Part shown: in pieces, positions 1,643-35,503 of the stretch
How the letters are laid out: every line of letters begins with the position of its first letter
How positions within the stretch are numbered: the stretch's first letter is position 1
From: Bradymonadia bacterium
GTDB lineage: Bacteria; Myxococcota_A; Bradymonadia; UBA7976; UBA1532
NCBI GenBank assembly: GCA_046290225.1
Contig: JBKAGE010000078.1
Location: forward strand, 352,001-416,000
Direction of reading: 5' to 3'
DNA: 64,000 bases
Notes under the pieces: generated by a model
Databases searched by the model: none
Told to the model about the DNA's origin: nothing
The model's input: only the letters and a program-made list of their open reading frames with translations
Position numbers and translations under genes: made by a program

Positions 1643-1768
1643 TCGGTACAGGCAGGCCGCCTCGAAGCCAGCACCAGTGGCCCCTGGGTCCAGAAGGTGG
1701 TACGGCTGTCTCAGTTTCAGGCTCAGCGCGCGCTTGCTTCTGGGCCCAGGTCCGACTCGGAGTTCTTG

Positions 1769-3934
1769 ATGGAGAACACGTCGCTCCCCCTGAGCGTACA
1801 GGGTGGCCTCGACTGGGTGCTCTGGCGCCTCAAGCGATACATCGCGCGCTACGGGCATCGGATGGTGCAGGCGAGCGGTACGCTCAACAACCTGTACGTG
1901 AGCCTCGACGAGGTCCGTGGGCTCACCGGGGCGGCGACCCTCGCCTCTGCAGATGCTGCGCGCCAGGGCATCGCCGGCTTGCCCAGCGTTCAGGTGGTGG
2001 ATGCCGCGATGGCCACCATGTCGAACGACTGGCTCACCGCTGATGGCCCCCTCTTCGATTTGCGGCGCCGATTCGAACTCACCGATGACGACGTGAAGCT
2101 GCTCATCGTCAGCCTGGCCCCCACCCTCTCGGTGGATCTGTCCCGGCTGTACGGCTTCGCCTGGGCAGACTTCTCGGTGAAGCAACCCACCGTGGGGTTT
2201 CTGTTGGAGCTGATCGCCGACGATCTCGCCGGCGCGTCCCGGCTCTCTGCCCGAGTGCACGGTGACGCCCCTCTGGTGAAGGGTCGCCTCATCGAGCTGT
2301 TCGACACCCAAGCCTGGGGCTCTCCCTCACCACGGCTGCATCAGGGTGTACGACTCCCGGAGTCGGTGGTGGACTTCATCTGCGCCCGCCCGCCGGCCCT
2401 GCCAAGGGGTCTCGGCGTGTTCTGTCGGCACGAGCGCGCAGAGGATGCACCTGACCCGTCGACGCCTCTGGCCCTGAGCCCGGGCCTCAGCGCGCGCTTG
2501 GGGCAGCTGGTGGCCCGTGGACTCTCGGACCAGGGCCTCCCGTTGCGCATGTTGCTCAACGGCCCCCGAGGCACGGGGCGCCGCACGTCGCTGGCCCAAT
2601 GGATGGGTCGCTATGGCTGGGGGCTCATGGTGGTCGATCTCGGCGCCTTGGCACCCCCAGAGGGCCAAACGCCGGCGGTGGACAAGCTCGCAGGTCACCT
2701 CGCCGACATCGGCCGTGAGGCGCTGCTCCATCGCTGTGGGCTGCTGTTGCGCACTGAGGACATGCCCGGTGAGAGCACGGCAGCCACTGGGGTGCTCACC
2801 GCCGTGGGCCAGGGGCTCGGCGGGTTCACGGGCCCCCTCGCCGTGAGCGCCACTCGGGCGCCCCGTGGGCTGCACAATCAGATCAGGCACCTCATCGAGC
2901 TCGACTATCACATCCCCGAGACATCGACTCAGCGCGCGCTGTGGACCGACGCTGTGCAGCGGGCGGACTGCCGCGCCGACGACACCCTCCCTGATCAGCT
3001 GGCCCGACGCTTCACCGCGCCACCAGGCACCATCTACACTGCAGTGCGAGACGCTGTCGCCCAGGCCAAACAGCAGACCCGAGAGACCCCCCGCATCACC
3101 ATCGATCAGATCGCCCTGGTGATCAGGCAGCAGGTGGATCACGCCCTCGCTGCGGTGGCGGAGCCCTTCGCCACCACCCTCACCTGGGATGACGTGGTGC
3201 TGCCGGAAGAGGTGGAGTCGGCCCTCATGGAGGTGAAGGCTCAAGCGCGGTTCCGAGAGAAGGTCTTCGATGACTGGGGCTTCCGCCGCAAGATGTCCTA
3301 CGGCCGCGGGCTGAGCTGCCTCTTCACGGGCCCCCCGGGTACCGGTAAGACCATGATGGCGGCGATCCTCGCCCAGAGCCTGGGCCGCGAGATCTATCGC
3401 GTGGATCTGTCACGGGTGGTGAGCAAGTGGATCGGTGAGACAGAGAAGAACCTGGCCCGCGTCTTCGACGAGGCAGAGAAGGCCCAGGTGATGTTGCTCT
3501 TCGACGAGGCCGACTCTCTGTTCTCGAGCCGTACGGAGGTGAAGGGGTCGAACGATCGCTTCGCCAACATGGAGATCAACTATCTATTGCAGCGCATGGA
3601 GTCGTACGACGGCATGTCGGTGCTCACAACGAACTTCGAGAAGAGCATCGACGAGGCCTTCAAGCGCCGCATCCGGTTCCGCATCCACTTCACGCTGCCC
3701 GACGCCGACGAGCGCGCCCGCCTGTGGAAGAGCATGATGCCGGAAGGCATGCAGTTGTCCGACGGCATCAAGTTCGAAGCGCTGGGGAAGAAGTTCAAGA
3801 TCGCTGGCGGCAACATCAAGAACGCGGTGTTGCGGGCGGCCTTCTTCGCTGCTGAAGGCGACGGGGTGATGACCCACGAGCGTCTGGATAAAGCGGCTGT
3901 TCTGGAGATGCGGGAGATGGGCCGGTTGATCTAG
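1769..3934 (+). CDS. AAA+ ATPase with N-terminal winged-helix-like region (Afp15/Pvc15-like family)
   Basis: Degenerate first AAA module (GPRGTGRRT) and intact second module ([32 protein letters not shown]). The ATG at 1769 follows GGAG; the ORF track starts at 1697. Confidence 0.85.
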
Positions 3935-8301: not shown

Positions 8302-8321
8302 GTCACGAAATTTTTCGTGAC
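8302..8321. promoter_or_regulatory. 20-bp dyad upstream of the protease/ECF cluster (candidate operator)
   Basis: GTCACGAAA-TT-TTTCGTGAC: perfect 9-bp arms, AT-rich in a GC-rich background, 65 bp before the start at 8387. Confidence 0.55.
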
Positions 8322-8386
8322 AAAAAACCCGGCCGGCGGTCTGTGTATGGCCCCTGTGAGACTCAAACTACGGAGGCACAGACCCG

Positions 8387-8887
8387 ATGAACATGCGAAA
8401 CACCCTGCTCCCCCTCGCCCTGCTCGCTCTCTCTGCCTGTGGCGGCGCCCAGAAGCCCACCGTTCAGCCCTCGATTCAAGCGGGGCCCGAAGCGGTGAAG
8501 CCCGGTGGAGACAAGCCGGGTCAGTGGGGCTGCCCTTACTGTGCGGTGCGTGTGTGTGTCGCTGAAGACAAAATCAACGATCCCTCTGCCGAAATCGAAG
8601 ACATCCGAGTAGATCTACCCCTGTCAGAAGATTTTGCAGATCTCAAAATCGCGGAAGCGGACCTGATGATCTCTGATCCCGAGAAGGAGACCGGGTTGTC
8701 CGTAGAGGTCGATCACGAAGCCCTCTACGATGGCCCTGTCAGCTTGCCCGCCGAAGACCTGCCGCAGATGTCGGTGGGGGCGTGGAGCGATTCAGAGACG
8801 ATGGTCATGCTCACCGTGGAAGGTGACTCGGGCCCCGAGCTGGTGCAGGTGCCCGTGGAAGTCAAGGTGGAGACGTGTTCGCAGTGA
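8387..8887 (+). CDS. Small acidic lipoprotein of unknown function
   Basis: GGAGG RBS, lipobox LLALSAC, a CPYC motif; the stop overlaps the next start (GTGA). Confidence 0.8.
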   Translation: MNMRNTLLPLALLALSACGGAQKPTVQPSIQAGPEAVKPGGDKPGQWGCPYCAVRVCVAEDKINDPSAEIEDIRVDLPLSEDFADLKIAEADLMISDPEKETGLSVEVDHEALYDGPVSLPAEDLPQMSVGAWSDSETMVMLTVEGDSGPELVQVPVEVKVETCSQ

Positions 8888-10812
8888 AGCGCTCAGGGCC
8901 ACGGTGGTGGTCCTTCGTCCTCGTGGCAGCTCTCGCACATTGGGGTTCACTCTGGGGCTGTGGGGCAACACCCAAGGCGCCTGCAGCGCCTCCCAAGCTC
9001 GCCCTGGTGGTGGGGATCAATCACTACCCGTCACCGCTCATCCCCGAGCTTGAGGGTGCCACACACGACGCGCGCAACTTCAAACAACTGCTCATCGAGC
9101 ACTATGGATTCGACGCCGCCGACGTGAAGGTTCTGACAGATGCTCAGGCCACTCGGGCAGGCATCTTGACGACCTTTCGCAGACATCTCGTGGAGCGAAC
9201 AGTGCCTGGTGCTCAGGTGGTCTTTCATTTCAGCGGACACGGCGCCCAGGTCTTCGACCGTTCGGGCGACGAGCCCGACCGCCTCGACGAAACCCTCGTG
9301 CCCTACGACGCACGGCGAAAGGGCGAGGCGGCCGGCGACATCCTCGATGACGAGATTCAGGGGCTGGTGAAGGCCATCGTCGCCCGTGGGGGGCACCCCA
9401 CCCTCATCTTCGACAGCTGTCACTCGGGGACCGCGGTCCGCTCAGGGCCGAAGGTTCGGGGCCTCGAGCTTCCCAAGGGGGTGAGCCCTGCAGCCCCTCA
9501 CCTGCAACCAGAAGACGAAGGCATGGAGATGCCCCGAGGGTACACCCTCGTCTCTGCGGCGGGCAGCGCTCAAAAGGCCCACGAGATCATCGACGGATCG
9601 GGGCAGGCCCACGGGGCCCTCACCTGGTTCCTCACCCGGGCCATTCGACAAAGCCATGGCCAAATCACGTGGCGCGCAGCAGTGAGTCGCGCCCAAGCTG
9701 ACGTCGCTGTGCACTTTCCCGGCCAACGACCTCGACTCGAAGGCGAAGGCCTCGATCAGCAGCCCTTCTCTACCCCCACGGCATCTCCGGTGGGACCCCC
9801 ACGCTACCTGGCGCGGGCCGTCACGGGATCTCAGAAGCAGCTGACCCTCAACGCCGGCAAGCTTCACGGTGTCGCCCGAGGGGCGCTGTACGGTCTGTAC
9901 CCCCTGGAGGCGATCTGGGCAGAGGAGTTGCCCCCTGAAGACGCTCAACTCGGCCGATTGCTGATCACTGAAGTGAACCCCATGGGGAGCACGGGCCGGC
10001 TGACAGGGGGTGACTGCCTCAAGGCCTGTCAGGCTGTTGAATTGTCGAGGCCTCTGACGCCCCACCCGCTCCCTGTGCGCCTCGATGGCCCCGAGGGTCA
10101 GTGGGATCCTTTGAAGAAGGCCCTCGAGCCCTGGGCGCAGGTGAAGGTCGTCGACGAGCCCCATCTCGCCCGGGCCATGCTCGCCACTTCCGAACAGGGC
10201 TTCACGCTGCAACTGCCTGCAGCAGGTGGGGTCGCTCAAGGGCTCTCTGTGGAGCAGGCCGTGGCGAAGCTGCTCCGATGGGCGCGGTGGTTTCACCTGA
10301 TGAACCTGCCCGACGGCGGTGACATCGGCGCCGAGATCACCCTCGATCCCCCCATCGTGGCCAACGCGGTGCCGCCGGGGACCCGCTTTACGCTCCAAGT
10401 GCAGAACAAAAGCCGCCGCCGGCTCTACCTGTCGGTGCTCTCGCTCTCCGACGAGGGTGAGATTACGCTCGTGTATCCCGCTCCCGGGGCTCAGGAGCAC
10501 ATCGATCCGGGCACCCGCTGGTCCAAGCCCATCCGCACAGTGCTCTCCAGGGACCGTGAGCAGAGCACAGATCTCATCCGAGTGGTCTTCACCCCGACAC
10601 CGCTCGATCTTGCTGCGGTGGAGCAGCCGCCTGAGCTGAGCACGCCGGGCACCCGTGGCCGGCCCTCCCTCGCCGGATGGCTGCTCTGGGGCGCCACCCG
10701 AGGGGGCCCGGTCTCGATGGAGACCCGAGATTGGAGTATTCGCAGCCTCGCGGTGACGGTGCGTCGCGAGGCGCCCCCTCTGCCCCCGAGAGTCGGCCAG
10801 GGCGAGGATTGA
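8884..10812 (+). CDS. Caspase-family (peptidase C14) lipoprotein with C-terminal DUF4384-like domain
   Basis: ALVVGINHY, catalytic FSGHG and IFDSCHSG, DETLVPYD, HGALT. The signal peptide ends in LWGC. The C-terminal beta-sandwich contains LYLSVLSL...ITLVYP. Confidence 0.92.
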   Translation: MKRSGPRWWSFVLVAALAHWGSLWGCGATPKAPAAPPKLALVVGINHYPSPLIPELEGATHDARNFKQLLIEHYGFDAADVKVLTDAQATRAGILTTFRRHLVERTVPGAQVVFHFSGHGAQVFDRSGDEPDRLDETLVPYDARRKGEAAGDILDDEIQGLVKAIVARGGHPTLIFDSCHSGTAVRSGPKVRGLELPKGVSPAAPHLQPEDEGMEMPRGYTLVSAAGSAQKAHEIIDGSGQAHGALTWFLTRAIRQSHGQITWRAAVSRAQADVAVHFPGQRPRLEGEGLDQQPFSTPTASPVGPPRYLARAVTGSQKQLTLNAGKLHGVARGALYGLYPLEAIWAEELPPEDAQLGRLLITEVNPMGSTGRLTGGDCLKACQAVELSRPLTPHPLPVRLDGPEGQWDPLKKALEPWAQVKVVDEPHLARAMLATSEQGFTLQLPAAGGVAQGLSVEQAVAKLLRWARWFHLMNLPDGGDIGAEITLDPPIVANAVPPGTRFTLQVQNKSRRRLYLSVLSLSDEGEITLVYPAPGAQEHIDPGTRWSKPIRTVLSRDREQSTDLIRVVFTPTPLDLAAVEQPPELSTPGTRGRPSLAGWLLWGATRGGPVSMETRDWSIRSLAVTVRREAPPLPPRVGQGED

Positions 10813-10870
10813 CAGCGATATGCCTCTGGGTTGAGATCCCGAGGCGATTGCGTGACACGTGAGTCGGTAG

Positions 10871-11686
10871 ATGACTGAGCCCCACATGGATGACGCGGCC
10901 CTCGACGCCCTGGCCTTCAAGGCCATGGGTGGGGGGGTGCCCGTCGAACCGCCTGATCCTGACGAGGCGCCTTCCCTCGATGAAGGCCTCATCCTCGCCT
11001 GGCAAGCAGGGCAGCTCGACGAGCACACATCGGCCCGTGTCGAGGCTGCCCTCGCCGCTGATCCAGAGGCCCGGGCGGTGGCCCTGGCCCTGGCGGAGCT
11101 GAACGCGTCGCCGGAGCTTGTGGATGATGTGATGCACCGGGCCTTGGAGAGCCAGAAGCCGAAGGCCATCTGGCGGTGGCCCACAGCAATGGCCGCAGCA
11201 GCGGCACTGGCCATTGGAGTGTGGTGGGGTCAACAAGAGCAGCGACTGCCAGGGCCAGACTATGCCTCGGGACCGCTGCTCGGTGCTGCACAAGTCTACC
11301 GCGGACCCGATCAGCCTCAGACCACATCTCCGGTCTATCTGCCGAGCAACACGCTGATGGTGAAGCTGCGACCTGCGACACCGCAAAGCGCGCCGAAGGT
11401 GCACATCTTCGGTGCCTTCGAGGGCGGCCAGCTCGAAGTCCTCTCAGATCATGTCGTCGAGCCCGTCGAGGGTGGCGGCCTCATCATCTCGGCGCCGGCG
11501 AGCGGCCTGTTCGGAGATCGCTTCGGCCCCTGGCGGTTGCATGTGGTCCTCGGCGATGTGCCCGAAGGGCTCGGCCGACGCGGTGAGGCTGAAGTGGATG
11601 CCAGAGCGCGCAGCTCGGGCACCACGTGGATGTCCTTCGATCTCCGCTATGCCCCCACCCTGAAGACAGATGAGGTGGAGCCCTGA
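10871..11686 (+). CDS. Putative transmembrane anti-sigma factor
   Basis: The N-terminus LILAWQAGQLDEHTSARVEAALAADPEAR matches the zf-HC2/ASD pattern without Zn ligands. One TM helix (AMAAAAALAIGVWW) precedes an extracytoplasmic domain, and the gene is adjacent to an ECF sigma. Confidence 0.75.
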   Translation: MTEPHMDDAALDALAFKAMGGGVPVEPPDPDEAPSLDEGLILAWQAGQLDEHTSARVEAALAADPEARAVALALAELNASPELVDDVMHRALESQKPKAIWRWPTAMAAAAALAIGVWWGQQEQRLPGPDYASGPLLGAAQVYRGPDQPQTTSPVYLPSNTLMVKLRPATPQSAPKVHIFGAFEGGQLEVLSDHVVEPVEGGGLIISAPASGLFGDRFGPWRLHVVLGDVPEGLGRRGEAEVDARARSSGTTWMSFDLRYAPTLKTDEVEP

Positions 11687-12339
11687 TTCTCTCACTCCTG
11701 CATCTGCTCACCGCCCTCCCCGGCGGCTTTGGTGATCGAGCCGACGAGGTCTTGATCAAGAAAGCCCTTGGAGGCCACAGCGGCGCTCTGCGCATGCTGG
11801 CGCGGCGTATTCTCCCAGTCATCAAGGCCCGGGCGCTGGCCTACACCCGTCGCCGTGGTGGTGATCTGGGAGTACACGACGCCGATGATCTCGTTCAGGA
11901 GATCTGGCTGACCCTGCTCAGCGATGACGGCCGTCTACTCAAGACCTATGACGCCACCCGGGGCAAATCCCTCGAGGGCTATGTCGGCCTGATCTGTCGT
12001 CGTGAGCTGTGGCGTCGTGCCCGGGCCCACGGCGCCATCCGCCGTGGAGGCGAAGCCCAGATCGCCCCCCTCGAAGCAGCCGCCGAGGCCCCGACCTCTG
12101 CCCCCGATCCCGAAGCCATCGTCATGGGGCAGAACCTGCTCGATGGTCTCTCGAGCTATCTGAGCGAGCAGCTGCCCGAGCGCGGCCGCCTCGTGCTCTC
12201 GGCCATCTACGAAGACCACCTCGAGCCGGCGAAGGCTGCGCAGATGATGGGGGTCAAGGTGCAGGTCGTGTACAACTGGCAGCACAAGATCCGCGGACTC
12301 ATCAAAGCCTACTGCGCCGAAGCTGGGGTGGCGGTCTGA
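11683..12339 (+). CDS. ECF-type RNA polymerase sigma factor
   Basis: Region 2 (DADDLVQEIWL...YDATRGKSLEGYV) and region 4 HTH (AAQMMGVKVQVVYNWQHKIR). The ORF track starts at TTG 11752; the start is inferred at CTG 11683 because the DEVLIKKALGG motif begins upstream of that TTG. Confidence 0.9.
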   Translation: MILSLLHLLTALPGGFGDRADEVLIKKALGGHSGALRMLARRILPVIKARALAYTRRRGGDLGVHDADDLVQEIWLTLLSDDGRLLKTYDATRGKSLEGYVGLICRRELWRRARAHGAIRRGGEAQIAPLEAAAEAPTSAPDPEAIVMGQNLLDGLSSYLSEQLPERGRLVLSAIYEDHLEPAKAAQMMGVKVQVVYNWQHKIRGLIKAYCAEAGVAV

Positions 12340-15056
12340 GGGCCCTACTTCGCTCGCACGCGCTGTGGATCTGCAGTGTGCTGGCCCTCTGCGCATGTCA
12401 GAAGGCACCAGAGCCGGCGCCAGCCCCTGCACCTCTCGAAGCGCTCATCATCAACCCCACAGCGCTGATTCGCGAGGGCACGAACGCCCAATACTGGCTC
12501 ACCCCTGGACGCAGTCTGCTCGTACAACTGAACGCGTCGAGTATCGCGGGCGCCTGGACTCTACACCTGCCTGATCGCAACATAGCCGGCAAGGTGGCTG
12601 GTCCATCAGTCCTCCGGTTTGAGCTGCCAAGCTCTATCCCACAGCCCCCCGAACGCGTTGAGCTGCGCTTGATTGGGCCCGGGCGACGGGAGATGCGCTG
12701 GCTGGTCCGATGGGTCAGTGATCCCCCACCTGCACGTCAAAAAGCTGCCCGCCTGAGCCGGGCAAGTGCCCGAGAGGCACTGAAGGCGCTCGGCTCGATG
12801 ACGCCGGAAGACTCAGTCTGGGCAACGCCGTTCAAGGCGCGGCTCAAGACGAGTCTCGAAGGGCCTCGCGCCGGTGTCGAAGCCTGGCTTGAAGGCGCCA
12901 GACTTGCTGGCACCCATGGTGTCCTCTCAGAACAGATGCGCAATCTGCACATCGCCGCCCACATGGCAGTGGGTGCCCAAATGTTCTCAGAAGCGAGCGA
13001 GGTTTTGGCTCAGGCCAGAGATCTCAACGTCTTTGACATCCAACCCCGCAGTCGATGGGACAATCAACACGCCCAGAGCTACCTCCATGCTCAGTTGGGT
13101 CAATGGATGCTCAGCAGACGTGCCCTCGAAGGCGCTCTGGCCGGTTATCGAGAGGCGGGGCTCTCGAACGAGGCAGCGTCAGCAGGCAACTCTCTCGCGT
13201 TGTTGCTCTCTGATTTGGGCCATCATCGTATCGCGCTGGAGGTGCTCAAGGGTGAAGTCGATCCTGATGCTCTGCCCACTCACCTCCAGCTTCTGCGAAA
13301 CGTCAACCTCGGCTGGATACTGCTCCGCGGCGCAACGGAGCGCATGTGGCCCCTGGACGAGGCAAGGCTCACCTCGCTCTTCACAGGCGCCCTGGCCTAC
13401 GCTCAGGAGGCCCATGGTGACCTGGATGTCGCCAACATCCGCGCCAACCTCGCCCTCACAGCCATCCTCGCAAACAACCTCGCCGAGGCCGAAACCCACC
13501 TCACCGCAGCCGAAGCCGCTGATCCTCGGGGAGAGAGTTTCGCCGCTCTGTTCATCGCTCGCCTCAAGGGTGAACTGGCCCTAGCGAAGGGAGACGCCCA
13601 GCAAGCGCTCGAGATCTTCGCAGTTGCTGAGCTGCTGGCCCGACGCAAGGCCAACGGAGACTGTGAGGACTGTTGGCGAGGCGCCTGGGGCAGCGGCCGC
13701 GCAGCGCTGGCCCTCGGCAACAGACAACACGCCCTGGAGATCTTCCGGCGAGCCATCGATGAGATGGATCGGCTCGCCCAATTTGCCTCGGTTACCGAAG
13801 ATCGAGGGCGCTTCAGAGCTGACCGCCGTGACCTCGTCGATGACACGCTCAGGTTGCTGCTCCACGATGCATGTGGTGCCAAAGGCCCCTGCCTGGACGA
13901 AGCCTTTGCCCTTGCAGATGCGCGGCGGGCAGCCCCCCTCGACGATTTGCTCAGTCGACTCCAGGCCGACCATCTGTCAGCCACCGAAGCACAACACCGA
14001 CGTGCCCGCATCGACGCCGCTCGGCAAGCTCAACGCGAGCTCCGCACATTGGTGGAGCGTGGCGCGGTCGTCCCTGAATCCGAACAGGCTCAGTGGCAGG
14101 CAGCCCACGTCCAGGCCAAAGCCGCCCGGGATGCAGCCTTCGAGGATGCGTTTGCCTTCGCCGGGCCCGCCAGCGGGGATCCCCAACAGCACAGTCCGCA
14201 CTCGATACGTCAGCACCTGGGCGATGACGCGGCCCTGCTCCTGATCACCCCCCTCGATGAAGGCTGGTACAGCTTCTGGCTCGACAACACCGTCCTCCGC
14301 GGTGCGGCGATCACCGACGACCCACTCGCACCCTGGACCGACGCCCTCAAAGACATTCGACACCTGTACGTGGTACCTGGAGGGCACCCCAAAGGCCTTG
14401 CCATCGCCACTGACGCCCTTGGGGATCGACCACCCCTCCTCAAGTCCCACACAGTGGCTGTACTGCCGCATGGCGGCCTGCTCAACGAGAAAGCCGCCAC
14501 GGCATCGGGGCCACCTGTCATCATCGCTGACCCGAGAGGCGACCTCTCTGGAGCAGCCGAGGAGGGCCGCCAGCTCGCCACACGCTGGCCTGATGCGCAG
14601 GTGCTCTCGGGCCCGCGCGCCAGAACAGCCCCAGTCCTCGATCACCTCACGCAGGCACGTAGGGTGCATTTCGCCGGCCACGGCGTCTTGCACAGGGCCG
14701 ACCCGTGGGCCGCCCACCTCGCGCTCTTCGACACCGACACCCTCGACGTGTACGCCATCCTCACCCACCCGGTGCCCAGCGAGCTGGTGTTTCTCAGTGG
14801 CTGTGAGACCGGCGTAGATGATGTGATCCTCGACGAAGAGATCGTGGGCTTGCCCGAGGCGTTTCTCGCTGCTGGGGCACGCTCCGTGGTGGCCACCGCC
14901 CGGCCCGTGGCCGATCGCTCTGCCCGGGCCTTCGCCCGGCACTTCTACGATCACCTCGACGCGGGCCCTGCTGCAGCGCTCAGGGCTGCGGCGTTGGCCC
15001 TCGAGGCCGAGGGTGATCCACACTGGACGGCCTACAGGCTGATGGGGAGGCGCTGA
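12336..15056 (+). CDS. TPR-CHAT protease 1, predicted lipoprotein
   Basis: CHAT dyad VHFAGHG / FLSGCETG, AFLAAGARSVVA and a TPR-like helical middle. The signal LRALLRSHALWICSVLALCAC begins at a CTG overlapping the sigma stop (start inferred). Confidence 0.88.
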   Translation: MRALLRSHALWICSVLALCACQKAPEPAPAPAPLEALIINPTALIREGTNAQYWLTPGRSLLVQLNASSIAGAWTLHLPDRNIAGKVAGPSVLRFELPSSIPQPPERVELRLIGPGRREMRWLVRWVSDPPPARQKAARLSRASAREALKALGSMTPEDSVWATPFKARLKTSLEGPRAGVEAWLEGARLAGTHGVLSEQMRNLHIAAHMAVGAQMFSEASEVLAQARDLNVFDIQPRSRWDNQHAQSYLHAQLGQWMLSRRALEGALAGYREAGLSNEAASAGNSLALLLSDLGHHRIALEVLKGEVDPDALPTHLQLLRNVNLGWILLRGATERMWPLDEARLTSLFTGALAYAQEAHGDLDVANIRANLALTAILANNLAEAETHLTAAEAADPRGESFAALFIARLKGELALAKGDAQQALEIFAVAELLARRKANGDCEDCWRGAWGSGRAALALGNRQHALEIFRRAIDEMDRLAQFASVTEDRGRFRADRRDLVDDTLRLLLHDACGAKGPCLDEAFALADARRAAPLDDLLSRLQADHLSATEAQHRRARIDAARQAQRELRTLVERGAVVPESEQAQWQAAHVQAKAARDAAFEDAFAFAGPASGDPQQHSPHSIRQHLGDDAALLLITPLDEGWYSFWLDNTVLRGAAITDDPLAPWTDALKDIRHLYVVPGGHPKGLAIATDALGDRPPLLKSHTVAVLPHGGLLNEKAATASGPPVIIADPRGDLSGAAEEGRQLATRWPDAQVLSGPRARTAPVLDHLTQARRVHFAGHGVLHRADPWAAHLALFDTDTLDVYAILTHPVPSELVFLSGCETGVDDVILDEEIVGLPEAFLAAGARSVVATARPVADRSARAFARHFYDHLDAGPAAALRAAALALEAEGDPHWTAYRLMGRR

Positions 15057-18000
15057 TGAGCAGACATCTCTTCTCACGGTTACATGCCGGGCTGTTCGCC
15101 CTCGGGCTGTTCGTCTTCGTGCTGGGCATCGGAGTCGGGCACGCCGAAGATGACGAGTTCGTGAGCGACGAGGCCATGGAGGCCCTGGCAAAGTTCCAGC
15201 AAGGGCAGAGCCTCTTCGAGGCGGGTCAGGTGGATCGCGCCCTCACGCTCTTCTCCGAGTCCCTCCCCATCGTGGAGACCATTGTGGCGCCGGATTCGCC
15301 GGGGGACATGGGTGACGCCTACTCCACCGTAGCCCGGTCGGCCTATACCGCGGAGCGCTTCGAGCTCGCAGACCAATGGGGCGTACGGGCCTTCGAGCTA
15401 CATCGCAAGGCGCACAAGGGGCATCACCCGAGCGCGGTTCAGGATCTCGATCTGCTCACCGCCACTGCCATGGCTCGAGGCCGATACTTCGAAGCGAGCG
15501 AGCGTCTCGAACAGGCCCTCGTCGTCATCGAGGCCCTCGACCCTTCTGATCCACGGCGCTCCGCAGGGCCCTCCGCAGTGGCTCAGGCCTTTGCCGAGCA
15601 CGGTGCCCGATCACTCGCTTCGAAGTGGTATGCCCACGCTCTGAAGGCCACTGAGGCGCAATTCGGCGCGGATCATCCCAACACCGGGATCGTCTTGAGC
15701 AACCAGGGCAGGCATCTGCTGGCCATTGGCGATCACCGCGGCGCAGCAAAGGCCCACCTCAGGGCCATGGAGATCATGCGCGCCCAGTATGGCGAGGTGC
15801 ACGCCGACACAGCTCGGACCATGGGCTACGCCGGCTGGTCCCTGCTCCACGCTGGGCAGCTGGCGAAGGGACGAAAACTCCTGGAGCAATCTCTCGCCAT
15901 CGAAGAGCAGGTGCACGGCCCGGAGCATGCCGAGGTCGCCGATACGCTGGTCGATCTCTCCGAGCTGTACCTGCACATTGGTGACATCCAACGGGCGCGC
16001 ACGCTGCTCGATCGCGCCGTGGCGATCAACGCAGCAAAGTTGTCGGAGGATGATCCGGACAGAGCCCGAGCGCACTTTGCCCTCGGTGCACTGCACTACA
16101 CCCAAGAAGACTACGACGCCGCCGAGACGCAGCTCACCCTCGCGTACACGCTGCTCACGGCGAAGGGCGAGGCAGGCAGCCAGCTGACTCACCTGCGCTA
16201 CGCTCTGGGATACCTGAAGGCCGAGCAGGGGCAAATCTCGGAGGGCATCGAGCTGCTGAAGACCGCCCTCGAAGAGAGCCAGGGTGAGGGCGGCAAGGCG
16301 AGTCAGCGGGCGCTCTATTCTGCCTTCCTTGGAGAACTCTACGTCCGCGATGGCGATCTCGACGCCGCTCGACCCTACCTCGACGATGCCCTCGCCTACA
16401 TCGAAGGGGCGGATCTGCCCGTTCATCCCTGGGCCGTCTACATGCGCTATGCCCTGCTGGCCCACGTGGACGATCGCCTGGCCACAGCCATCTTCTTCGC
16501 CAAGAAGGCGGTCGCTGCGTTGGAGAGCAGCCGCCGTGAGGTGGCCAGTATGACTGGCGGTGCCCTCGATCACTTCGACGGGACTCATCGACCCACCTAC
16601 GAGCTGCTCGCCGATCTGCTCATCGAGGCAGGCAGGCTCCTGGAAGCGCAGCAGGTCCTCGACTTGCTCAAGCAGGCAGAGTTCAGAGCATTCACGCGCT
16701 CGGATCCTCGGGGGCCCTCTCTCACATGGAACGCTCGAGAGCAACCGATGGTGGTCCGTCGGGAGTCTGGCGGACCCAAGGGCGGCTATGTGGAGATCAC
16801 GCACCGTCTCGCCAGCGCAGGCCGGGCCTACGAGGCGCTGCTCGCCCGAAAGCGGCAGGCCCTCCGAGAAGGTCGCCCCTGGGCCGAGGCGCAGGAAAAA
16901 GTGCTTCAGACCCTCCGCAGCGATCTCGGGGCAGCCCGAAGCGCCTATCTCGCCCAACTCGCTCAGCTCGAAGAGACGCTGAAGGCCAGAGACGACGGCG
17001 ATCTGCTCGGAAGACACCAGCTCAAGCGGCTCAGTGCGCTCCAGAGCACGCTCCGCCGCATCGGTGAGGGTACCGTGCTGGTCCACGCCCTCATCACCGA
17101 TGACGCATTGCACCTGCTGCTCACCACCCCAGGCGTACAGCTCGTGCGGACTGTACCGATCAAGCGCGCGGACCTGTACCGCGACATCCACACCATGCGA
17201 CAGGCCCTCGCCTCCCCCTCGATGCCGATCCACGACGCCGCCGGGCGCATGTACAAGCATCTCGTCGCCCCGATTCGCGAAGATCTCCGCCAGGCAGGCG
17301 CACGGACGATCTTGTTCGCTCTCGATGGTCCGCTGCGTTACCTGCCCCCTGCGGCGCTGTATGACGCCAAATCGAAACGCTACCTCGTCCAGACCTTTGC
17401 GGTGGCCCACTACACCGAGGCTTCACGCAACACCCTGGAGCGCGATCGCCAGCGCCTGGCCTCCGCCGCAGGCTTGGGGCTGAGCAAGGCTCAGGGTGGG
17501 TTCTCCCCTCTCCCAGCAGTGGGGGAAGAGCTCGATCGGCTGGTCAAGCAGGGGCCGGAGGACGAGGGTGCGATGCCTGGGGTGGTCCATCTCGACGAAG
17601 CGTTCTCCAGAGATGCTCTCGTTGGGGCCCTGGAAGATCGACATCCGGTGGTGCACGTGGCCAGTCACTTCGCCTTTCGCCCAGGCACTGAGGACGATTC
17701 CTATCTCTTGCTCGGTGATGGGCAGCGACTCTCCATCGCCGAGCTGAGATCTGGGGCGTTCCGCTTCGACGAGGTCGAACTGCTCACCCTCTCGGCCTGC
17801 GAGACCGCGCTCTCCACCGGCGCCGACGGTCGAGAGATCGATGGCCTCGCCACCGTGGCACAGGACCGAGGGGCCCAGTCGGTCCTCGCCAGTCTCTGGC
17901 CTGTGGCCGATGTGAGTACTGCCCGACTGATGGGCCACATGTACCAGCGGCTCGTCACCGGCGAGGGCAAGGCCCAGGCCCTCAGGCAAGCGCAGCTGGC

Positions 18001-18169
18001 CCTGCTCAACGGAGAGATTGGTGGCGTCTCCGAGGTGGCAACCACACGGGGCATCGTCAGAGATGGCCCACCGGCGAAGGCTCGCGACGTCTTTGTCCCG
18101 CCCCCTGACGCTCCATGGGCACACCCCTACCACTGGGCCCCGTTCATCCTCATGGGTCACTGGCGATAG
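15056..18169 (+). CDS. TPR-CHAT protease 2, secreted
   Basis: Sec signal (…VLGIGVGHA|EDD), kinesin-light-chain-type TPRs (FGADHPNTG, HGPEHAEVA), CHAT dyad VHVASHF / LTLSACET, ASLWPVAD and HPYHWAPFIL. TGATG overlap with the upstream stop. Confidence 0.93.
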   Translation: MSRHLFSRLHAGLFALGLFVFVLGIGVGHAEDDEFVSDEAMEALAKFQQGQSLFEAGQVDRALTLFSESLPIVETIVAPDSPGDMGDAYSTVARSAYTAERFELADQWGVRAFELHRKAHKGHHPSAVQDLDLLTATAMARGRYFEASERLEQALVVIEALDPSDPRRSAGPSAVAQAFAEHGARSLASKWYAHALKATEAQFGADHPNTGIVLSNQGRHLLAIGDHRGAAKAHLRAMEIMRAQYGEVHADTARTMGYAGWSLLHAGQLAKGRKLLEQSLAIEEQVHGPEHAEVADTLVDLSELYLHIGDIQRARTLLDRAVAINAAKLSEDDPDRARAHFALGALHYTQEDYDAAETQLTLAYTLLTAKGEAGSQLTHLRYALGYLKAEQGQISEGIELLKTALEESQGEGGKASQRALYSAFLGELYVRDGDLDAARPYLDDALAYIEGADLPVHPWAVYMRYALLAHVDDRLATAIFFAKKAVAALESSRREVASMTGGALDHFDGTHRPTYELLADLLIEAGRLLEAQQVLDLLKQAEFRAFTRSDPRGPSLTWNAREQPMVVRRESGGPKGGYVEITHRLASAGRAYEALLARKRQALREGRPWAEAQEKVLQTLRSDLGAARSAYLAQLAQLEETLKARDDGDLLGRHQLKRLSALQSTLRRIGEGTVLVHALITDDALHLLLTTPGVQLVRTVPIKRADLYRDIHTMRQALASPSMPIHDAAGRMYKHLVAPIREDLRQAGARTILFALDGPLRYLPPAALYDAKSKRYLVQTFAVAHYTEASRNTLERDRQRLASAAGLGLSKAQGGFSPLPAVGEELDRLVKQGPEDEGAMPGVVHLDEAFSRDALVGALEDRHPVVHVASHFAFRPGTEDDSYLLLGDGQRLSIAELRSGAFRFDEVELLTLSACETALSTGADGREIDGLATVAQDRGAQSVLASLWPVADVSTARLMGHMYQRLVTGEGKAQALRQAQLALLNGEIGGVSEVATTRGIVRDGPPAKARDVFVPPPDAPWAHPYHWAPFILMGHWR

Positions 18170-18229: not shown

Positions 18230-18442
18230 CGGTTCAGCAGGGGGCGCTCGCCGTCCCATAGTCGAAAACGCATGTCATTCCCGCTGGTTGATTCCCTATA
18301 GAGGGCACAGGCGTGGTGTATCTCGATGGCGGTCAGGCGCCCCGCGCCGCCCACCAGCGACACGCACCGATCTGCCCTGACCAGAGCCAGGGTGAAGGCT
18401 GGATGGATGGCCGATAGAAACGGCCAGAAGCGAGAGGTCGAG

Positions 18443-19786
18443 ATGTCTGCCCCCCAAGTCAGGGAGAACCCACAACCGAGCCCCCTCGGCGTTCACGTGG
18501 CCCTCGTTTGGCGAAACACCATGCTCAAGGATGTGTGGATCCGTCCCGGCGACGCAGCCACCCTCGGCGCCGACCTGAACTGCACGTTCACGTTGCCCGA
18601 GAGCGCTGGAGTCATCGGCACACACACGCTGATTACTCATGATGAGATGGGCCCTCTCCTCATCCCCCCATCGGGCAGCTCCGGGCGCCGTGCCTCTGCG
18701 GCTCAGCTGGCCGCAGATGCCGCCCCCCTCGGCTCCGCCACGATCACACTGGAAGAAGGCGACCGCGGCACGCTCGACCTGGGCCCCTTCACGTTGGTGT
18801 TCCGCTGCGAGCCGCTGCCCGATCGACGCTTGATCCCCAGGGTGGCCCCCTGGCTCGCCTGGGACACGGGCCTGATCGGCGGCATCCTCACCGCCCTCGT
18901 GGGCCAGATGGCGTTTCTGATCGCAGCGTTCTACATCTGGGAGCCCACACCTGCCCTGGCCACGGCGGACTTCGCCGATCGTGACTTCGTTGTGCAGATG
19001 CAGTTGCTGCCGCCCGAGCCGGAGATCGTGGAGCCCGAATCCATCGAAGATGATGAGGGTGCCTCCAAGGCCATTGAGGGTGAGGAGGGTCAGGCAGGAG
19101 AGCCCGAGAAGCCGACGGAGCGACCCACCACCATCAAACGCAAGAAGGACACTGAGACCTCGGGCATGCCCCGCAAGGGTGTCTTTCAAGCGATGGACGG
19201 CTTGAGCAGCCGGGGACCAATGGGCGGCGTCTTCGACGGGGCTGATCGTCTGAAGAACGATCTCGACGCTGCCATGGCTGGGGTGAACGATTCCACCTTT
19301 GTGGGTCGAGGCAACGAAGGCCTGGGCATCAGGGGCACTGGCCCTGGTGGAGGCGGGCTGCACAAGATGGGCACCATCCAGGGGGTCGGGACCCGGTCAG
19401 GTCCCGGGCGCGGGGTCCGCGGCAAAGGGCTGAAGGGCCGGCGCAAGATGCCGAAGACGGTGAAGCCCGATCGCAAGCACGTCAAAGTGGGCGACTACTG
19501 CCGACAGAACGACATCATCAAGGTGGTCAACCGGCGCCAGCGCGGCCTGAAGTTCTGCTACGAGAAAGGTCTGCGAGGCAACCCCGAGCTCCAGGGCAAG
19601 GTCACCTTCTCGTGGCGCATCGGCCTGGACGGCAGGGTCATGAAAGTGCTCGTAGAGGACGACAGCCTGCAGGATCGAGAGGTCACGCAGTGCATGCAGC
19701 GTGCGGTGAAACGCTGGCGCTTCCCCCAGCCCGACGGGGGTCTGTGTCAGGTGCGCTTCCCCTTTGTCTTCAACGCCGGGCTCTGA
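18443..19786 (+). CDS. AgmX/PglI C-terminal (TonB-C-like) single-pass membrane protein, GltG-like
   Basis: Cytoplasmic N-domain, TM helix, Gly-rich linker (GLGIRGTGPGGGG) and C-terminal FCYEKGLRGNPELQGKV...WRFPQP...FPFVF. ATG 18443 follows GAGG. Confidence 0.85.
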   Translation: MSAPQVRENPQPSPLGVHVALVWRNTMLKDVWIRPGDAATLGADLNCTFTLPESAGVIGTHTLITHDEMGPLLIPPSGSSGRRASAAQLAADAAPLGSATITLEEGDRGTLDLGPFTLVFRCEPLPDRRLIPRVAPWLAWDTGLIGGILTALVGQMAFLIAAFYIWEPTPALATADFADRDFVVQMQLLPPEPEIVEPESIEDDEGASKAIEGEEGQAGEPEKPTERPTTIKRKKDTETSGMPRKGVFQAMDGLSSRGPMGGVFDGADRLKNDLDAAMAGVNDSTFVGRGNEGLGIRGTGPGGGGLHKMGTIQGVGTRSGPGRGVRGKGLKGRRKMPKTVKPDRKHVKVGDYCRQNDIIKVVNRRQRGLKFCYEKGLRGNPELQGKVTFSWRIGLDGRVMKVLVEDDSLQDREVTQCMQRAVKRWRFPQPDGGLCQVRFPFVFNAGL

Positions 19787-19805
19787 TCCCGCATACTCCC
19801 CGGCC

Positions 19806-20537
19806 ATGAACGCCACAACGCCTCTCCTCGGCGCCCCCGGCAAGGCCATCATGACCCTGGTCGAGCGGGCGATTCACGATCATCAACTCATCTCCCCTGG
19901 GGATCGCATCGCCGTGGGCATCAGCGGCGGCAAGGACTCCCTGCTGCTGGCCTGCGCCTTCAAGGCCCTCTCCCAGCGCTCCGATCTCGACTTCGAGTGG
20001 TGCGGGGTCCACCTCGACCAGCACCAGCCCGGCTTTGCCCGCGATCAGTTCAATGCCGCCATCGAGGCTCTGGAGATCCCGCTTCAGGTGGTCTCCGAGG
20101 ACACCTGGAGCGTGGTGGAGAGCAAGCTCGCGCCAGGGCAAATCCCCTGCGCGCTGTGCGGCCGCATGCGTCGGGGCATCTTGAACCGCTGGTGCGCTGA
20201 GCACGGCTTCAACACGCTCGCCCTCGGTCACCACCTCGACGATGCCATCGAGACCTTCTTCTTGAACCTTCTGTTTCAGCGAAAACTCGATCCGCTCAAG
20301 CCGGCCACGTCGGCGAGCGCACACCCGGTGACCACCATCCGACCACTCATTCTGGTGGAGGAGCGCAAGATCGTGGACTGGCGGGATCGTCATGGTCTGC
20401 TGCCGGTGCCCTGCCCGGTGTGCGACAGCTTCCCCGAGTCTCGACGGCGGGATCTCAAGCGACTGCTCGAGCAGTTCAAGCAGTTACAGCCTCACGTGGC
20501 CGCCTCGATCCGAGGGGCACTCTACGATCGCAGCTAG
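19806..20537 (+). CDS. ttcA: tRNA 2-thiocytidine biosynthesis protein (PP-loop)
   Basis: SGGKDS, CALCGRMRRG, ALGHHLDD, IRPL, CPVC. Confidence 0.85.
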   Translation: MNATTPLLGAPGKAIMTLVERAIHDHQLISPGDRIAVGISGGKDSLLLACAFKALSQRSDLDFEWCGVHLDQHQPGFARDQFNAAIEALEIPLQVVSEDTWSVVESKLAPGQIPCALCGRMRRGILNRWCAEHGFNTLALGHHLDDAIETFFLNLLFQRKLDPLKPATSASAHPVTTIRPLILVEERKIVDWRDRHGLLPVPCPVCDSFPESRRRDLKRLLEQFKQLQPHVAASIRGALYDRS

Positions 20538-23669: not shown

Positions 23670-29639
<5,970 letters not shown>

Positions 29640-29747
29640 CGTGGTGACTCCCTCTGCTCGAGCCTGCAACTGGCCCGTCGGAGGGAAAGTCGGTGGATCT
29701 ACCTAGGCTGATGATGGCTCATTCTGGGTCGACCCACTGGTGGGTGC

Positions 29748-33259: not shown

Positions 33260-35503
33260 ATGAACTTGCAGTTCCTCCTCATCGCCGTCGGCGTCTTCAT
33301 CGTCATCGTCATCGGGATCCTGGTCATGATCACGCGGTTCTACCGCAAGGTCGATCAGGGTCAGGCCCTCATCGTGAACAAGCTCAAGGCCGAGCCGGAG
33401 GTCACCTTCACCGGCGGGGTGGTGCTGCCCATCGTGCACCGCGCAGAGACCATGGACATCTCGGTGAAAGCCATCGAGATCGCCCGCCGTGGCGCGGAAG
33501 GGCTCATCTGTCGGGACAACATCCGGGCCGACATCAAGGTGAACTTCTTCGTACGGGTGAACAAGACCACCGAAGACGTGCTCAAGGTGGCCCAGAACAT
33601 CGGCTGCGTCCGGGCCAGCGATCGCGCCACCCTGGAAGAGCTGTTCGTGGCGAAGTTCTCCGAAGCCCTGAAGACCGTCGGTAAGCGGCTCGAGTTCGAG
33701 GAGCTCTACACCAAGCGCGAAGAGTTCAAGGACCAGATCGTCGAGGTCATCGGCCGCGATCTCAACGGCTATGTGCTCGACGACGCCGCCATCGACTACC
33801 TCGAGATGACCCCCCTCGACCAGATGGACGCCAACAACATCCTCGACGCCCAGGGCATCCGGAAGATCACCGAGATCACCAGCCAGCAGAACGTGCGCAC
33901 CAACGATCTCAAGCAGACCGAGCGCATGGAGATCGGGCGCCAGAACCTGGCCTCCGACGAAGCCCTGTTCCGCTTCGAGCAGCAGCGCGCCGACGCTGAG
34001 GCCAAAAAGAACAAAGAGGTGGCCATCACCCAGGCCCGTGAGCAGAACGAGGCCCTCCGGGTGCAGCAGGAAGAAGGTAAGAAGACCGCCATCGCTCGGA
34101 ACAAGGCCGAGGAAGAAGTGGCCATCAGCGCCGAGGCCAAGGCCCGCTCCGTCGCCGTAGCGGCGAAGGCGCGGGAGCGCGAGATCGGCGTCGAAGAGGT
34201 GCGCATCAAGAAGGCCTCTGATCTCGAGGAGATCGGCCGCGAGCGCGAGGTGGAGCTGCGACGCATCTCCAAAGAAAAGGATCTCGAGGTCGAGCGGAAG
34301 GACATCGCCGACGTGGTGCGCCAGCGCATCGCCGTGGACAAGACCGTCGCCGAGGAAGAAGAGCGCATCAAAGATCTGCGGGCGCAGGCGGAAGCCGAGC
34401 GTGAGAAGCAGGTGAAGATGGTGAAGGCCGAGGCCGACGCCCAGGAGGCCCTCGTCAAGGAGATCAAGGCCGCCGAGGCCAACGAGGCCGTGGCCAAGTT
34501 CAAGGCCCGGGAGCGCCTCATCAGCGCCGACGCCGAGGTAGAAGCCGCTGACAAGGCCGCCCGCGCCAAGACGCGCCTCGCCGAGGGTGTGCAGGCCGAG
34601 CAGGCCGCCCACGGCCTCGCCGAGGTCCGGGTGCAGGAGGCGCAGGCCGCCGCCATCGAGAAGCAGGGTCTCGCCGAGGCCCGGGTCACCAAGGAGAAGA
34701 TGAACGCCGAGGCCGAGGGTCAGGAGTCCCAGGGCATGGCCCGCCTGAAGGTGCGCCAGGCCGAGGTCGAGGTCACCGAGCAGGAAGGCATGCTCAAGGC
34801 CAAGCTGGTGAGAGAGCAGCGCGAGGCCGAGGCCAACGCCATCGAGCAACAGGGCGTCGCCGAAGCGAAGGTCAAGGAAGCCCACGCCGCGGCCATCGAG
34901 AAGCAGGGCACCGCAGAGGCCGCCGCCATCCGCGAGAAGCTCGCCGCCGAGGCCGCCGGCCTCGCGGAGAAGGCCGAGGCCATGAAGGCCCTCGACGGTG
35001 CCGGTCGGGAGCACGAGGAGTTCCGCATCAAGCTGGAGCAGGAGCGCGAGATCGCCATGGCCAAGATCCAGGCTCGGGTCCAGGTGAGCGAGGCTCAGGC
35101 CCGCGTCATGGCCAACGCCTTCGATCAGGCGAAGATCAACATCGTCGGCGGCGACGGTCAGTTCTTCGACCGGTTCCTCAAGGCTGTGAGCCTCGGCCAC
35201 GCCGTCGACGGCTTCATGGACGCGAGCACCACGGCGCAGACCGCCCTGGGCGAGTACCAGGACGGCAGCCGTAGCTTGCCCAACGATCTCACCGAGATCC
35301 TGAGCCGCCCCGCCATCGGCCCCGAAGGCATCAAGGACCTCTCCCTCGTGGCCTTGATCAAGAAGCTGATGGACGGCGCTGGCCCCGATGACATGGTGAA
35401 GCTGCGGGCCCTGCTGGCCCAGGTGCAGCGCCAGGGCATCGGCGGCCTCTCTCTGCTGCCTGCGGGCACGCACACCAAGGGCACTCCTGACGCCGAGGGC
35501 TGA
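33260..35503 (+). CDS. Flotillin-like SPFH/band 7 protein (YqiK-like)
   Basis: N-terminal TM, GLICRDNIRADIKVNFFVRVN, NNILDAQGIRKI and a long AE-rich coiled coil. Confidence 0.92.
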   Translation: MNLQFLLIAVGVFIVIVIGILVMITRFYRKVDQGQALIVNKLKAEPEVTFTGGVVLPIVHRAETMDISVKAIEIARRGAEGLICRDNIRADIKVNFFVRVNKTTEDVLKVAQNIGCVRASDRATLEELFVAKFSEALKTVGKRLEFEELYTKREEFKDQIVEVIGRDLNGYVLDDAAIDYLEMTPLDQMDANNILDAQGIRKITEITSQQNVRTNDLKQTERMEIGRQNLASDEALFRFEQQRADAEAKKNKEVAITQAREQNEALRVQQEEGKKTAIARNKAEEEVAISAEAKARSVAVAAKAREREIGVEEVRIKKASDLEEIGREREVELRRISKEKDLEVERKDIADVVRQRIAVDKTVAEEEERIKDLRAQAEAEREKQVKMVKAEADAQEALVKEIKAAEANEAVAKFKARERLISADAEVEAADKAARAKTRLAEGVQAEQAAHGLAEVRVQEAQAAAIEKQGLAEARVTKEKMNAEAEGQESQGMARLKVRQAEVEVTEQEGMLKAKLVREQREAEANAIEQQGVAEAKVKEAHAAAIEKQGTAEAAAIREKLAAEAAGLAEKAEAMKALDGAGREHEEFRIKLEQEREIAMAKIQARVQVSEAQARVMANAFDQAKINIVGGDGQFFDRFLKAVSLGHAVDGFMDASTTAQTALGEYQDGSRSLPNDLTEILSRPAIGPEGIKDLSLVALIKKLMDGAGPDDMVKLRALLAQVQRQGIGGLSLLPAGTHTKGTPDAEG

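Follow-up and report, generated by a model that had tools for sequence, protein, structure and literature searches.

We analyzed a 64,000-nucleotide stretch of a Bradymonadia bacterium genome (contig JBKAGE010000078.1, positions 352,001 to 416,000; hereafter, the window), in which six open reading frames (ORFs) on the plus strand, at 8387–18169, encode a small lipoprotein, a caspase, a transmembrane (TM) anti-sigma factor, a sigma factor of the extracytoplasmic function (ECF) type and two TPR-CHAT proteins (hereafter, CHAT1 and CHAT2). Judged by sequence comparison with related loci, this operon represents a variant form of a switch that recurs in myxobacteria; here the caspase and the lipoprotein replace the usual subtilase partner, and the conserved core of the cassette is the ECF sigma, the TM anti-sigma and the lipoprotein CHAT1. 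Taking the observed gene anatomy, conservation, homology and co-occurrence together with a predicted protein complex, we consider it fairly likely that the operon is a split, exported DdvA-like switch, in which CHAT1 would act as the site-1 protease of the anti-sigma. The features, with positions counted from the first nucleotide of the window, are as follows.

8323..8347, plus strand: candidate ECF promoter; AAAAA-N15-GTGTA, which matches AAAAG-N15-GTGCA in degenerate form
8387..8887, plus strand: small lipoprotein; lipobox C18, C49-x-x-C52 and C164, Fn3-like beta-sandwich
8884..10812, plus strand: metacaspase-type C14 protease; GTG start, lipobox C26, H119/C179
10871..11686, plus strand: single-pass anti-sigma; degenerate ZAS-like N-domain, TM helix 106–122, Ig-like periplasmic domain 127–265
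11300..11305, plus strand: anti-sigma residues Arg144-Gly145, in a loop conserved across the family and proposed to be cut by CHAT1
11683..12339, plus strand: ECF sigma factor; probably started at a CTG that overlaps the stop of the anti-sigma gene, hydrophobic N-terminal extension of ~20 residues
12336..15056, plus strand: TPR-CHAT1 lipoprotein; probable CTG start, lipobox C21, D732, H782/C823
15056..18169, plus strand: TPR-CHAT2; Sec-type signal, H871/C915

The six co-directional, mostly overlapping genes were described in the initial annotation and are confirmed here, with junctions of −4, +58, −4, −4 and −1 in gene order; four of the five junctions are overlaps, two of which hold only with CTG starts for the sigma and CHAT1. 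Pfam and NCBIfam profiles agreed with the proposed identities of the caspase (PF00656, E 7e-20), CHAT1 and CHAT2 (PF12770, E 9e-33 and E 1e-60, respectively) and the ECF sigma (PF04542 over its cut-off, PF08281 weak, TIGR02937 at 53.7 bits vs a cut-off of 42.9), the last being a short protein with sigma-70 regions 2 and 4. Both CHAT proteins combine a TPR array with a CHAT domain, and the His/Cys dyads previously read in all three proteases are those listed above. Export signals, assessed from motifs (by eye), hydropathy and conservation, had also been claimed for all three, and here they differ in clarity: the Sec-type signal of CHAT2 is clear, lipobox C21 of CHAT1 is present only when translation starts at the CTG, and lipobox C26 of the caspase is preceded by a weak hydrophobic stretch (mean 1.43), the weakest export signal of the set. 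A CHAT1 start overlapping the sigma stop was found in 3/3 orthologous operons (CTG, TTG and CTG) and yields a normal lipoprotein signal. The longest-ORF start of CHAT1, GTG 12009, was rejected because it would overlap the sigma gene by 330 bases and bury the lipobox. Close strains were represented by short contigs of low depth from two marine DNA runs, covering parts of all six genes; among the differences listed (40 of 110), 30 of 37 in five genes were synonymous and none fell in the anti-sigma. None of the runs listed as holding the operon was an RNA dataset.

At a threshold of E 1e-25, the sigma family was detected in 13/24 genomes of the same family and in 0/16 others, with 46 matches, 40 of which were fetched. 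Together with the window and three paralogues these gave 44 loci, 14 of which are truncated, either where a contig ends or by fetch limits. The anti-sigma was found within 8 kb of the sigma at 42 of the 44 loci, the CHAT1 domain at 31, a subtilase at 23, and the caspase with the lipoprotein at 4. CHAT1 was present at all 23 subtilase loci and the caspase at none of them, while five loci had CHAT1 with neither subtilase nor caspase. The paralogous loci in this genome (contigs C76, C38 and C35) combine the sigma, anti-sigma and CHAT1 families with a secreted S8 subtilase. A further 25 loci, titled mostly as Myxococcota-type metagenome-assembled genomes (MAGs), included 17 in which CHAT1 accompanies the anti-sigma and a subtilase, and no caspase or lipoprotein was seen in any of the 25. 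The anti-sigma family occurs in 24/301 genomes across the phylum, with 13 of the 24 coming from outside the bacterium's own family. The two TPR sensors and the caspase had been proposed to form a multi-input relay, which is not supported as a conserved arrangement, since only CHAT1 travels with the sigma and anti-sigma. At one of the relatives' loci (L076), a family sigma lies between two CHAT1-type genes, with a divergent subtilase.

The anti-sigma of the window has no Pfam match, and 11/39 members of its family match zf-HC2. Its structure model (mean predicted local distance difference test, pLDDT, 84.6) comprises a helical N-domain, a TM helix at 106–122 and an Ig-like beta-sandwich, in keeping with the earlier reading of a TM anti-sigma. 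The N-terminal bundle, the single TM helix and the adjoining sigma place it among ZAS-type TM anti-sigmas as a degenerate member, in which the zinc ligands HxxxCxxC are missing and which has no Cys at all. Fold searches, in which the sandwich gave only generic Ig-type matches, returned nothing more specific than common Ig or Fn3 arrangements (best Z values, 7.9 and 7.6). No mutual profile similarity was seen among the Ig domain of the anti-sigma, the C-terminal domain of the caspase, the N-terminal domain of CHAT1 and the lipoprotein. About 22 residues beyond the TM helix, the sequence G138-x5-R144-G145 forms a loop in the model. G138 is invariant in the family, and position 144 is Arg in 34/39 and Lys in 3/39 members, against an Arg background of 9% in the domain; Arg was also found at this position in 19/19 held-out homologues from distant loci outside the profile. 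On contig C37 of this genome (L005:9279–11123), a 614-aa ORF following a subtilase and CHAT1 carries a family anti-sigma as its C-terminal part, which lacks the conserved Arg and is fused to an unassigned N-terminal region. On contig C68 (L006, 13056–18988), a divergent sigma/anti-sigma pair lies between two opposite-strand CHAT genes, the anti-sigma lacking the Arg and the sigma lacking the hydrophobic extension.

In CHAT1, D732, H782 and C823 are invariant in 27/27 sequences, and the Asp is retained in 16/17 held-out copies. The complex of CHAT1 (residues 40–905) with the anti-sigma domain (residues 128–261) was predicted alongside three controls; a prediction for protease/anti-sigma pairs had been called for in the initial annotation. 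The pair scored 0.67 and the best control 0.00; the score mark is attained by 116/157 solved complexes and 2/215 mismatched pairs, a benchmark that is rough for this pair because our own alignments were used. The runs shared at least 94% of contacts, with a partner pLDDT of at least 84. In the model, anti-sigma residues 137–147 rest on CHAT1 residues 732–741, 780–785 and 821–824, which places the Arg loop in the active site, and a second contact joins CHAT1 575–583 to anti-sigma 165–172 and 199–205. These models support binding of CHAT1 to the periplasmic domain of the anti-sigma, with D732 as the predicted S1 Asp.

The CHAT1 profile, searched against PDB, found DdvA (8rot) as the sole CHAT protein (E 1.3e-9). 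The DdvS/DdvA system of Myxococcus xanthus (PMC11506125, PMC6061681; PDB 8rot and 8rw5) is described as an ECF sigma with a single-pass ZAS-type anti-sigma and a periplasmic TPR-CHAT with a His/Cys dyad, for which a juxtamembrane CHAT cut followed by RseP has been proposed (PMC11506125). There the TPR-CHAT is fused to the TM anti-sigma, whereas here the two are separate genes with the sigma between them; the operon would work alike without being a member of that system. It also differs in the small Ig-like anti-sigma domain with its conserved Arg-Gly loop, in the extra proteases, and in the candidate promoter (AAAAG-N15-GTGCA vs GTAA-N16-CGT for DdvS). The DdvS regulon, according to these accounts, includes cyclic oligonucleotide-based antiphage signaling (CBASS) and CRISPR genes, whereas the candidate targets here are exported proteins and none of those genes was seen, in a genome not searched for Cas or CBASS. 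The idea of a CRISPR-free, split DdvA-like switch with an exported CHAT acting on a TM anti-sigma, put forward in the initial annotation, gains support from co-occurrence and from the complex model. According to the DdvA study (PMC11506125), whether a periplasmic CHAT acts as an anti-sigma site-1 protease was left open, because the signal was unknown and enzyme and substrate sit in one membrane protein. The split arrangement would make this question testable with two purified proteins: its substrate domain is soluble and 134 residues long, a single scissile bond (R144-G145) is predicted, and so is an S1 Asp.

The switch could then run as follows. By analogy with its family, the ZAS-like N-domain of the anti-sigma would bind the ECF sigma and hold it at the inner membrane. 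Upon a signal, the CHAT1 lipoprotein would bind the Ig-like domain, as the modeled contact predicts, and would cut after Arg144. An RseP-type protease, as proposed for DdvA, would then cleave the membrane stub; two RseP-family genes score over the cut-off in the genome, which also has 11 CHAT and 6 caspase matches in total. The released sigma would transcribe its own operon along with a group of genes for exported proteins, for which candidate promoters are described below. The CxxC lipoprotein and the caspase would form an exchangeable second-protease module in place of a subtilase-CxxC fusion, and CHAT2 would be a later addition without an assigned part in the switch. A more elaborate version, a periplasmic caspase cascade in which the anti-sigma and the metacaspase are both cut at Arg sites by one exported TPR-CHAT, a modular CxxC domain plugs in either subtilase or caspase, and the sigma is double-locked, being also membrane-tethered by a removable pro-sequence, is tentative and in our estimate rather unlikely.

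Several observations weigh against CHAT1 as the site-1 protease. The Arg is missing from 4/44 anti-sigmas, and it is kept at 6/30 fully flanked loci that have sigma and anti-sigma with no CHAT1 nearby. The complex test, in which CHAT1/anti-sigma was the pair modeled, can also be passed by close relatives of a true partner, and the pass may partly reflect likeness, because CHAT-substrate complexes have been solved (Csx29/Csx30 and DdvA). The caspase, being metacaspase-like, could also cut after Arg144. The locus counts are descriptions rather than statistics, because related genomes are not independent. This genome shows no enrichment of the strict promoter motif (6 matches vs 5 for the reversed control), and the match in the window is degenerate. 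Finally, the DdvA dyad was reported in a resting state, with no autoproteolysis upon Mx4 infection (PMC11506125).

The caspase fills the slot held by the S8 subtilase in most relatives, as far as gene content and profile comparison indicate. The lipoprotein profile aligned over 106 columns with the CxxC domain found at the C-terminus of 18 cassette subtilases (hhalign 95.9%, E 5.5e-9), nine control pairings giving at most 1.1%, and therefore the lipoprotein and caspase correspond, in split form, to the subtilase-CxxC fusion. The initial annotation had treated the caspase as an equal input and given the lipoprotein no role; the pairing of the two, in the slot of the subtilase, does not fit that view. 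The free lipoprotein was detected as nine copies in 5/28 family genomes, the same five that hold the orthologous sigma (the profile was built from those copies), and all nine lie directly upstream of a caspase; in the ESM Atlas it matched no named family (best score 0.77). The caspase aligned to yeast Yca1 (4f6o, E 1.9e-20) with GHG, DSC and the acidic S1 and Ca-site residues kept, which, with its caspase domain and His/Cys dyad, makes it a C14 metacaspase. Its relatives carry a DUF4384-like C-terminal domain, and Arg motifs right behind the catalytic Cys are kept in 9/9 homologues. Arg/Lys cleavage specificity would follow from what is known of the metacaspase family (PMC3501461). A redox role, with the CxxC of the lipoprotein shielding the catalytic Cys, was considered and is weakened because the same CxxC domain sits on a serine protease.

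These data also bear on an alternative in which the second protease, here the caspase and elsewhere the subtilase, senses the signal through its CxxC domain and either activates CHAT1 or cuts the anti-sigma. The CxxC domain kept in both layouts, the acidic residues of Arg/Lys-specific metacaspases in the caspase, the restriction of the free lipoprotein to genomes with the orthologous sigma and the grouping of the same loci in the caspase and CHAT1 trees would all fit it. It nevertheless appears unlikely: a serine and a cysteine protease occupy one slot, which makes a shared precise cut less likely, five loci have CHAT1 with neither of the two, and lipoprotein-caspase pairs occur with no CHAT1 or sigma nearby (L106 and L107). 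The closest published CHAT/caspase cascade, moreover, is described as running from CHAT to caspase (10.1101/2023.06.23.546230). In two genomes, G015 and G023, the orthologous pair of anti-sigma and sigma is found by itself (L044 and L047) and lipoprotein-caspase-CHAT1 trios lie elsewhere (L110 and L109), their CHAT1 and caspase grouping with those of the window in quick trees (support 88 and 93). Most likely, the lipoprotein and caspase are a regulated output or a second CHAT1 substrate rather than a required input. The exchange of subtilase and caspase around a common CxxC domain illustrates how such switches may be rewired. Another arrangement is found at L108:6244–18144 (G014), where CHAT1 is divergent from a lipoprotein, a caspase, a 1632-aa protein and a second caspase; no sigma of the cassette family was seen at this locus.

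Alternatively, CHAT1 could be a resting, protective or sensing partner of the anti-sigma, with another protease or none opening the switch and the proteases being mainly regulon outputs. This would accord with DdvA, whose dyad is resting and whose dyad mutants are reported to keep repressing (PMC11506125), and with the position of the operon behind a candidate promoter of its own sigma; the complex score, too, shows neither catalysis nor affinity. It seems distinctly unlikely given that the dyad and the acidic pocket of CHAT1 are invariant and that the modeled contact sets the conserved Arg loop on the catalytic residues, both of which fit CHAT1 as the protease that opens the switch.

The motif AAAAG-N15-GTGCA was spotted by eye ahead of the first gene in 4/4 orthologous loci. 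The site in the window (8323–8347) was equaled by 8/1000 shuffles and is the third-best match there, the two better ones falling inside coding DNA. Strict matches vs reversed control were 4:0 in G015, 2:0 in G022, 11:0 in G023 and 2:1 in G014. A relaxed form, widened so as to include the site in the window, gave 21 matches in this genome, 11 of them upstream of a gene with a hydrophobic N-terminus, compared with 7/18 and 8/15 at neighboring spacers and 0–4 at others. Among these 11 candidate targets, Pfam detected PA14, PDZ, beta-propeller, MopE, DUF4397 or nothing, and no defense genes. Lipoprotein-caspase loci without the sigma showed no such motif ahead of their genes (best scores 8.6–12.3, at other positions) and were therefore not assigned to the regulon. 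The motif may be shared by paralogous sigmas. Straight DNA alignment of the upstream regions was uninformative, neither a sigma-70 promoter nor a clear terminator was found, and the repeats detected were chance-like. The candidate targets point weakly to envelope or secretion proteins as the output, with anti-phage defense unsupported; no evidence was found among them for the threat or phage signal suggested in the initial annotation. Directly upstream of the candidate −35 lies a perfect 9-base inverted repeat with a 2-base centre (8302–8321), a possible operator. In G015 and G023 the motif precedes ORFs of 66–68 aa (L182 and L198, respectively), which we take to resemble microviridin/graspetide precursors.

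CHAT2 looks like a lineage-specific later addition to the operon, as judged from gene neighborhoods and phylogeny. In a quick tree it falls in a clade separate from CHAT1 (support 100), in a family of at least 1830 members from several phyla, and at E 1e-40 it has matches in 3/40 related genomes. No orthologue was found in the 40 sigma loci fetched from relatives, some of which are cut by contig ends, and at six CHAT2 homologue loci fetched from relatives there was no sigma or anti-sigma of the cassette family; one of the six lies ~2 kb from a caspase. In the survey of neighborhoods, lipoprotein, caspase, anti-sigma, sigma and CHAT1 follow one another in this order also in G014 (L045) and G022 (L046), both of another genus, with the L046 contig ending inside CHAT1; CHAT2 was beside the cassette in none of the other genomes examined. 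In the fully flanked L045, unrelated genes follow CHAT1, and the six-gene form was found only in this genome among those examined. The CHAT1-CHAT2 junction, a 1-base overlap, is bridged by one close-strain contig from another sample, with 31 letters on the short side. The initial reading of CHAT1, CHAT2 and the caspase as three inputs of one cascade relaying an envelope or threat signal could call on the presence of three clan CD proteases, all exported, within a single tightly coupled operon, on this bridged junction and on the existence of two-CHAT loci (L076 and contig C68), yet is highly improbable in view of the separate CHAT2 clade, its absence from the sigma loci, its homologues without the cassette sigma and the candidate targets without defense genes.

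Some parts of such a switch are, in the published accounts, already described: fused in DdvA, CRISPR-linked in Csx29/Csx30 and SAVED-CHAT/PCaspase, and in ECF54 and sigma/metacaspase operons. In type III-E Csx29/Csx30/CASP-sigma, as described in PMC10028731, a separate TPR-CHAT likewise cuts a loop of an ECF-binding anti-sigma and recognizes the substrate through a folded domain beside the loop; Csx29 is cytoplasmic and RNA-activated through Cas7-11, whereas here the proteases carry export signals and the anti-sigma is membrane-spanning. The operon does not belong to the type III-E craspases: as the initial annotation stated, no CRISPR component was found in the window, with no CRISPR-like array in the 64 kb by a simple exact-repeat check and no Cas match among 26 proteins scanned or 11 run in PADLOC, whose matches (BovA, caspase) are explained by shared domains only. 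The Haliangium ochraceum type III-B SAVED-CHAT/PCaspase/PCc-sigma/PCi cluster (10.1101/2023.06.23.546230) resembles the operon in joining a CHAT, a C14 caspase, a sigma and a small partner in one myxobacterial cluster. It is described as cA3-triggered via SAVED, with a kinase, and its caspase cuts the sigma and PCi; here there are export signals on the proteases and a TM anti-sigma, and no SAVED or kinase match in the six operon proteins, which sets the operon apart from that system. ECF54 (PMC7826278 supplement; PMC8999054) also has an ECF sigma beside a TPR-CHAT and a subtilase, as in most cassette relatives. By its description in PMC7826278, it is found in Actinobacteria only, with no putative anti-sigma, a carboxypeptidase-regulatory-like neighbor and another promoter motif, so that the present family, with its TM anti-sigma and titled relatives that are mostly Myxococcota-type MAGs, falls outside it. 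Myxobacterial sigma-70/metacaspase operons were noted in 2012 without a mechanism (PMC3501461); the term CHAT does not occur in the main text of that paper, and neither CHAT nor an anti-sigma is given a role there. Operons of this type are present at four separate loci of this genome (L009–L012 on contigs C8, C79, C6 and C34), with sigma-like and anti-sigma-like ORFs beside a caspase, as judged from translations.

Translation of the sigma probably starts at a conserved CTG. In 5/5 orthologous loci this codon overlaps the stop of the anti-sigma gene and is preceded by a purine-rich stretch resembling a Shine-Dalgarno sequence; at three of these loci the extension has no ATG, GTG or TTG upstream of the conserved first Asp. 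The longest-ORF start, TTG 11752, was rejected because it would truncate the conserved first helix. A hydrophobic stretch ahead of this helix was present in 37/40 scorable family sigmas (44 given) and in 0/80 off-frame controls, and in only 3/23 scorable sigmas of the further, titled-MAG loci. The extension may be a membrane anchor or a pro-sequence, which we presume to resemble that of pro-sigmaK of Bacillus. If true, a hydrophobic extension behind a CTG start would be a form of ECF control missed by standard annotation. N-terminal extensions can be overlooked where start codons are non-canonical, as noted by Casas-Pastor et al. (PMC7826278). Our literature search found no paper on the hydrophobic extension of this sigma, on the CxxC domain, or on an exported TPR-CHAT that is encoded separately from the TM anti-sigma it accompanies, and subscription papers and unseen supplements may hold more. 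A metagenome scan for close sigma orthologues gave at least 17 matches, all distant (at most 36% identity among the matches listed).

Downstream of the operon, the window encodes a GltG/AgmX-like gliding protein (18326–19786) and a PP-loop protein (19764–20537), neither linked to the operon in the relatives examined. Further genes of the window include a secreted protein of 1999 aa that carries many Asp-rich repeats and has an anchor-like tail at its C-terminus (23670–29669, minus strand), a 747-aa orphan coupled to an 1827-aa DUF3686/DUF7902 AAA protein (33260–40986, plus strand) and a 3664-aa TPR protein (52968–63962, minus strand). Upstream of the operon, a winged-helix AAA ATPase (1697–3934, plus strand) has IetA-type matches in PADLOC.

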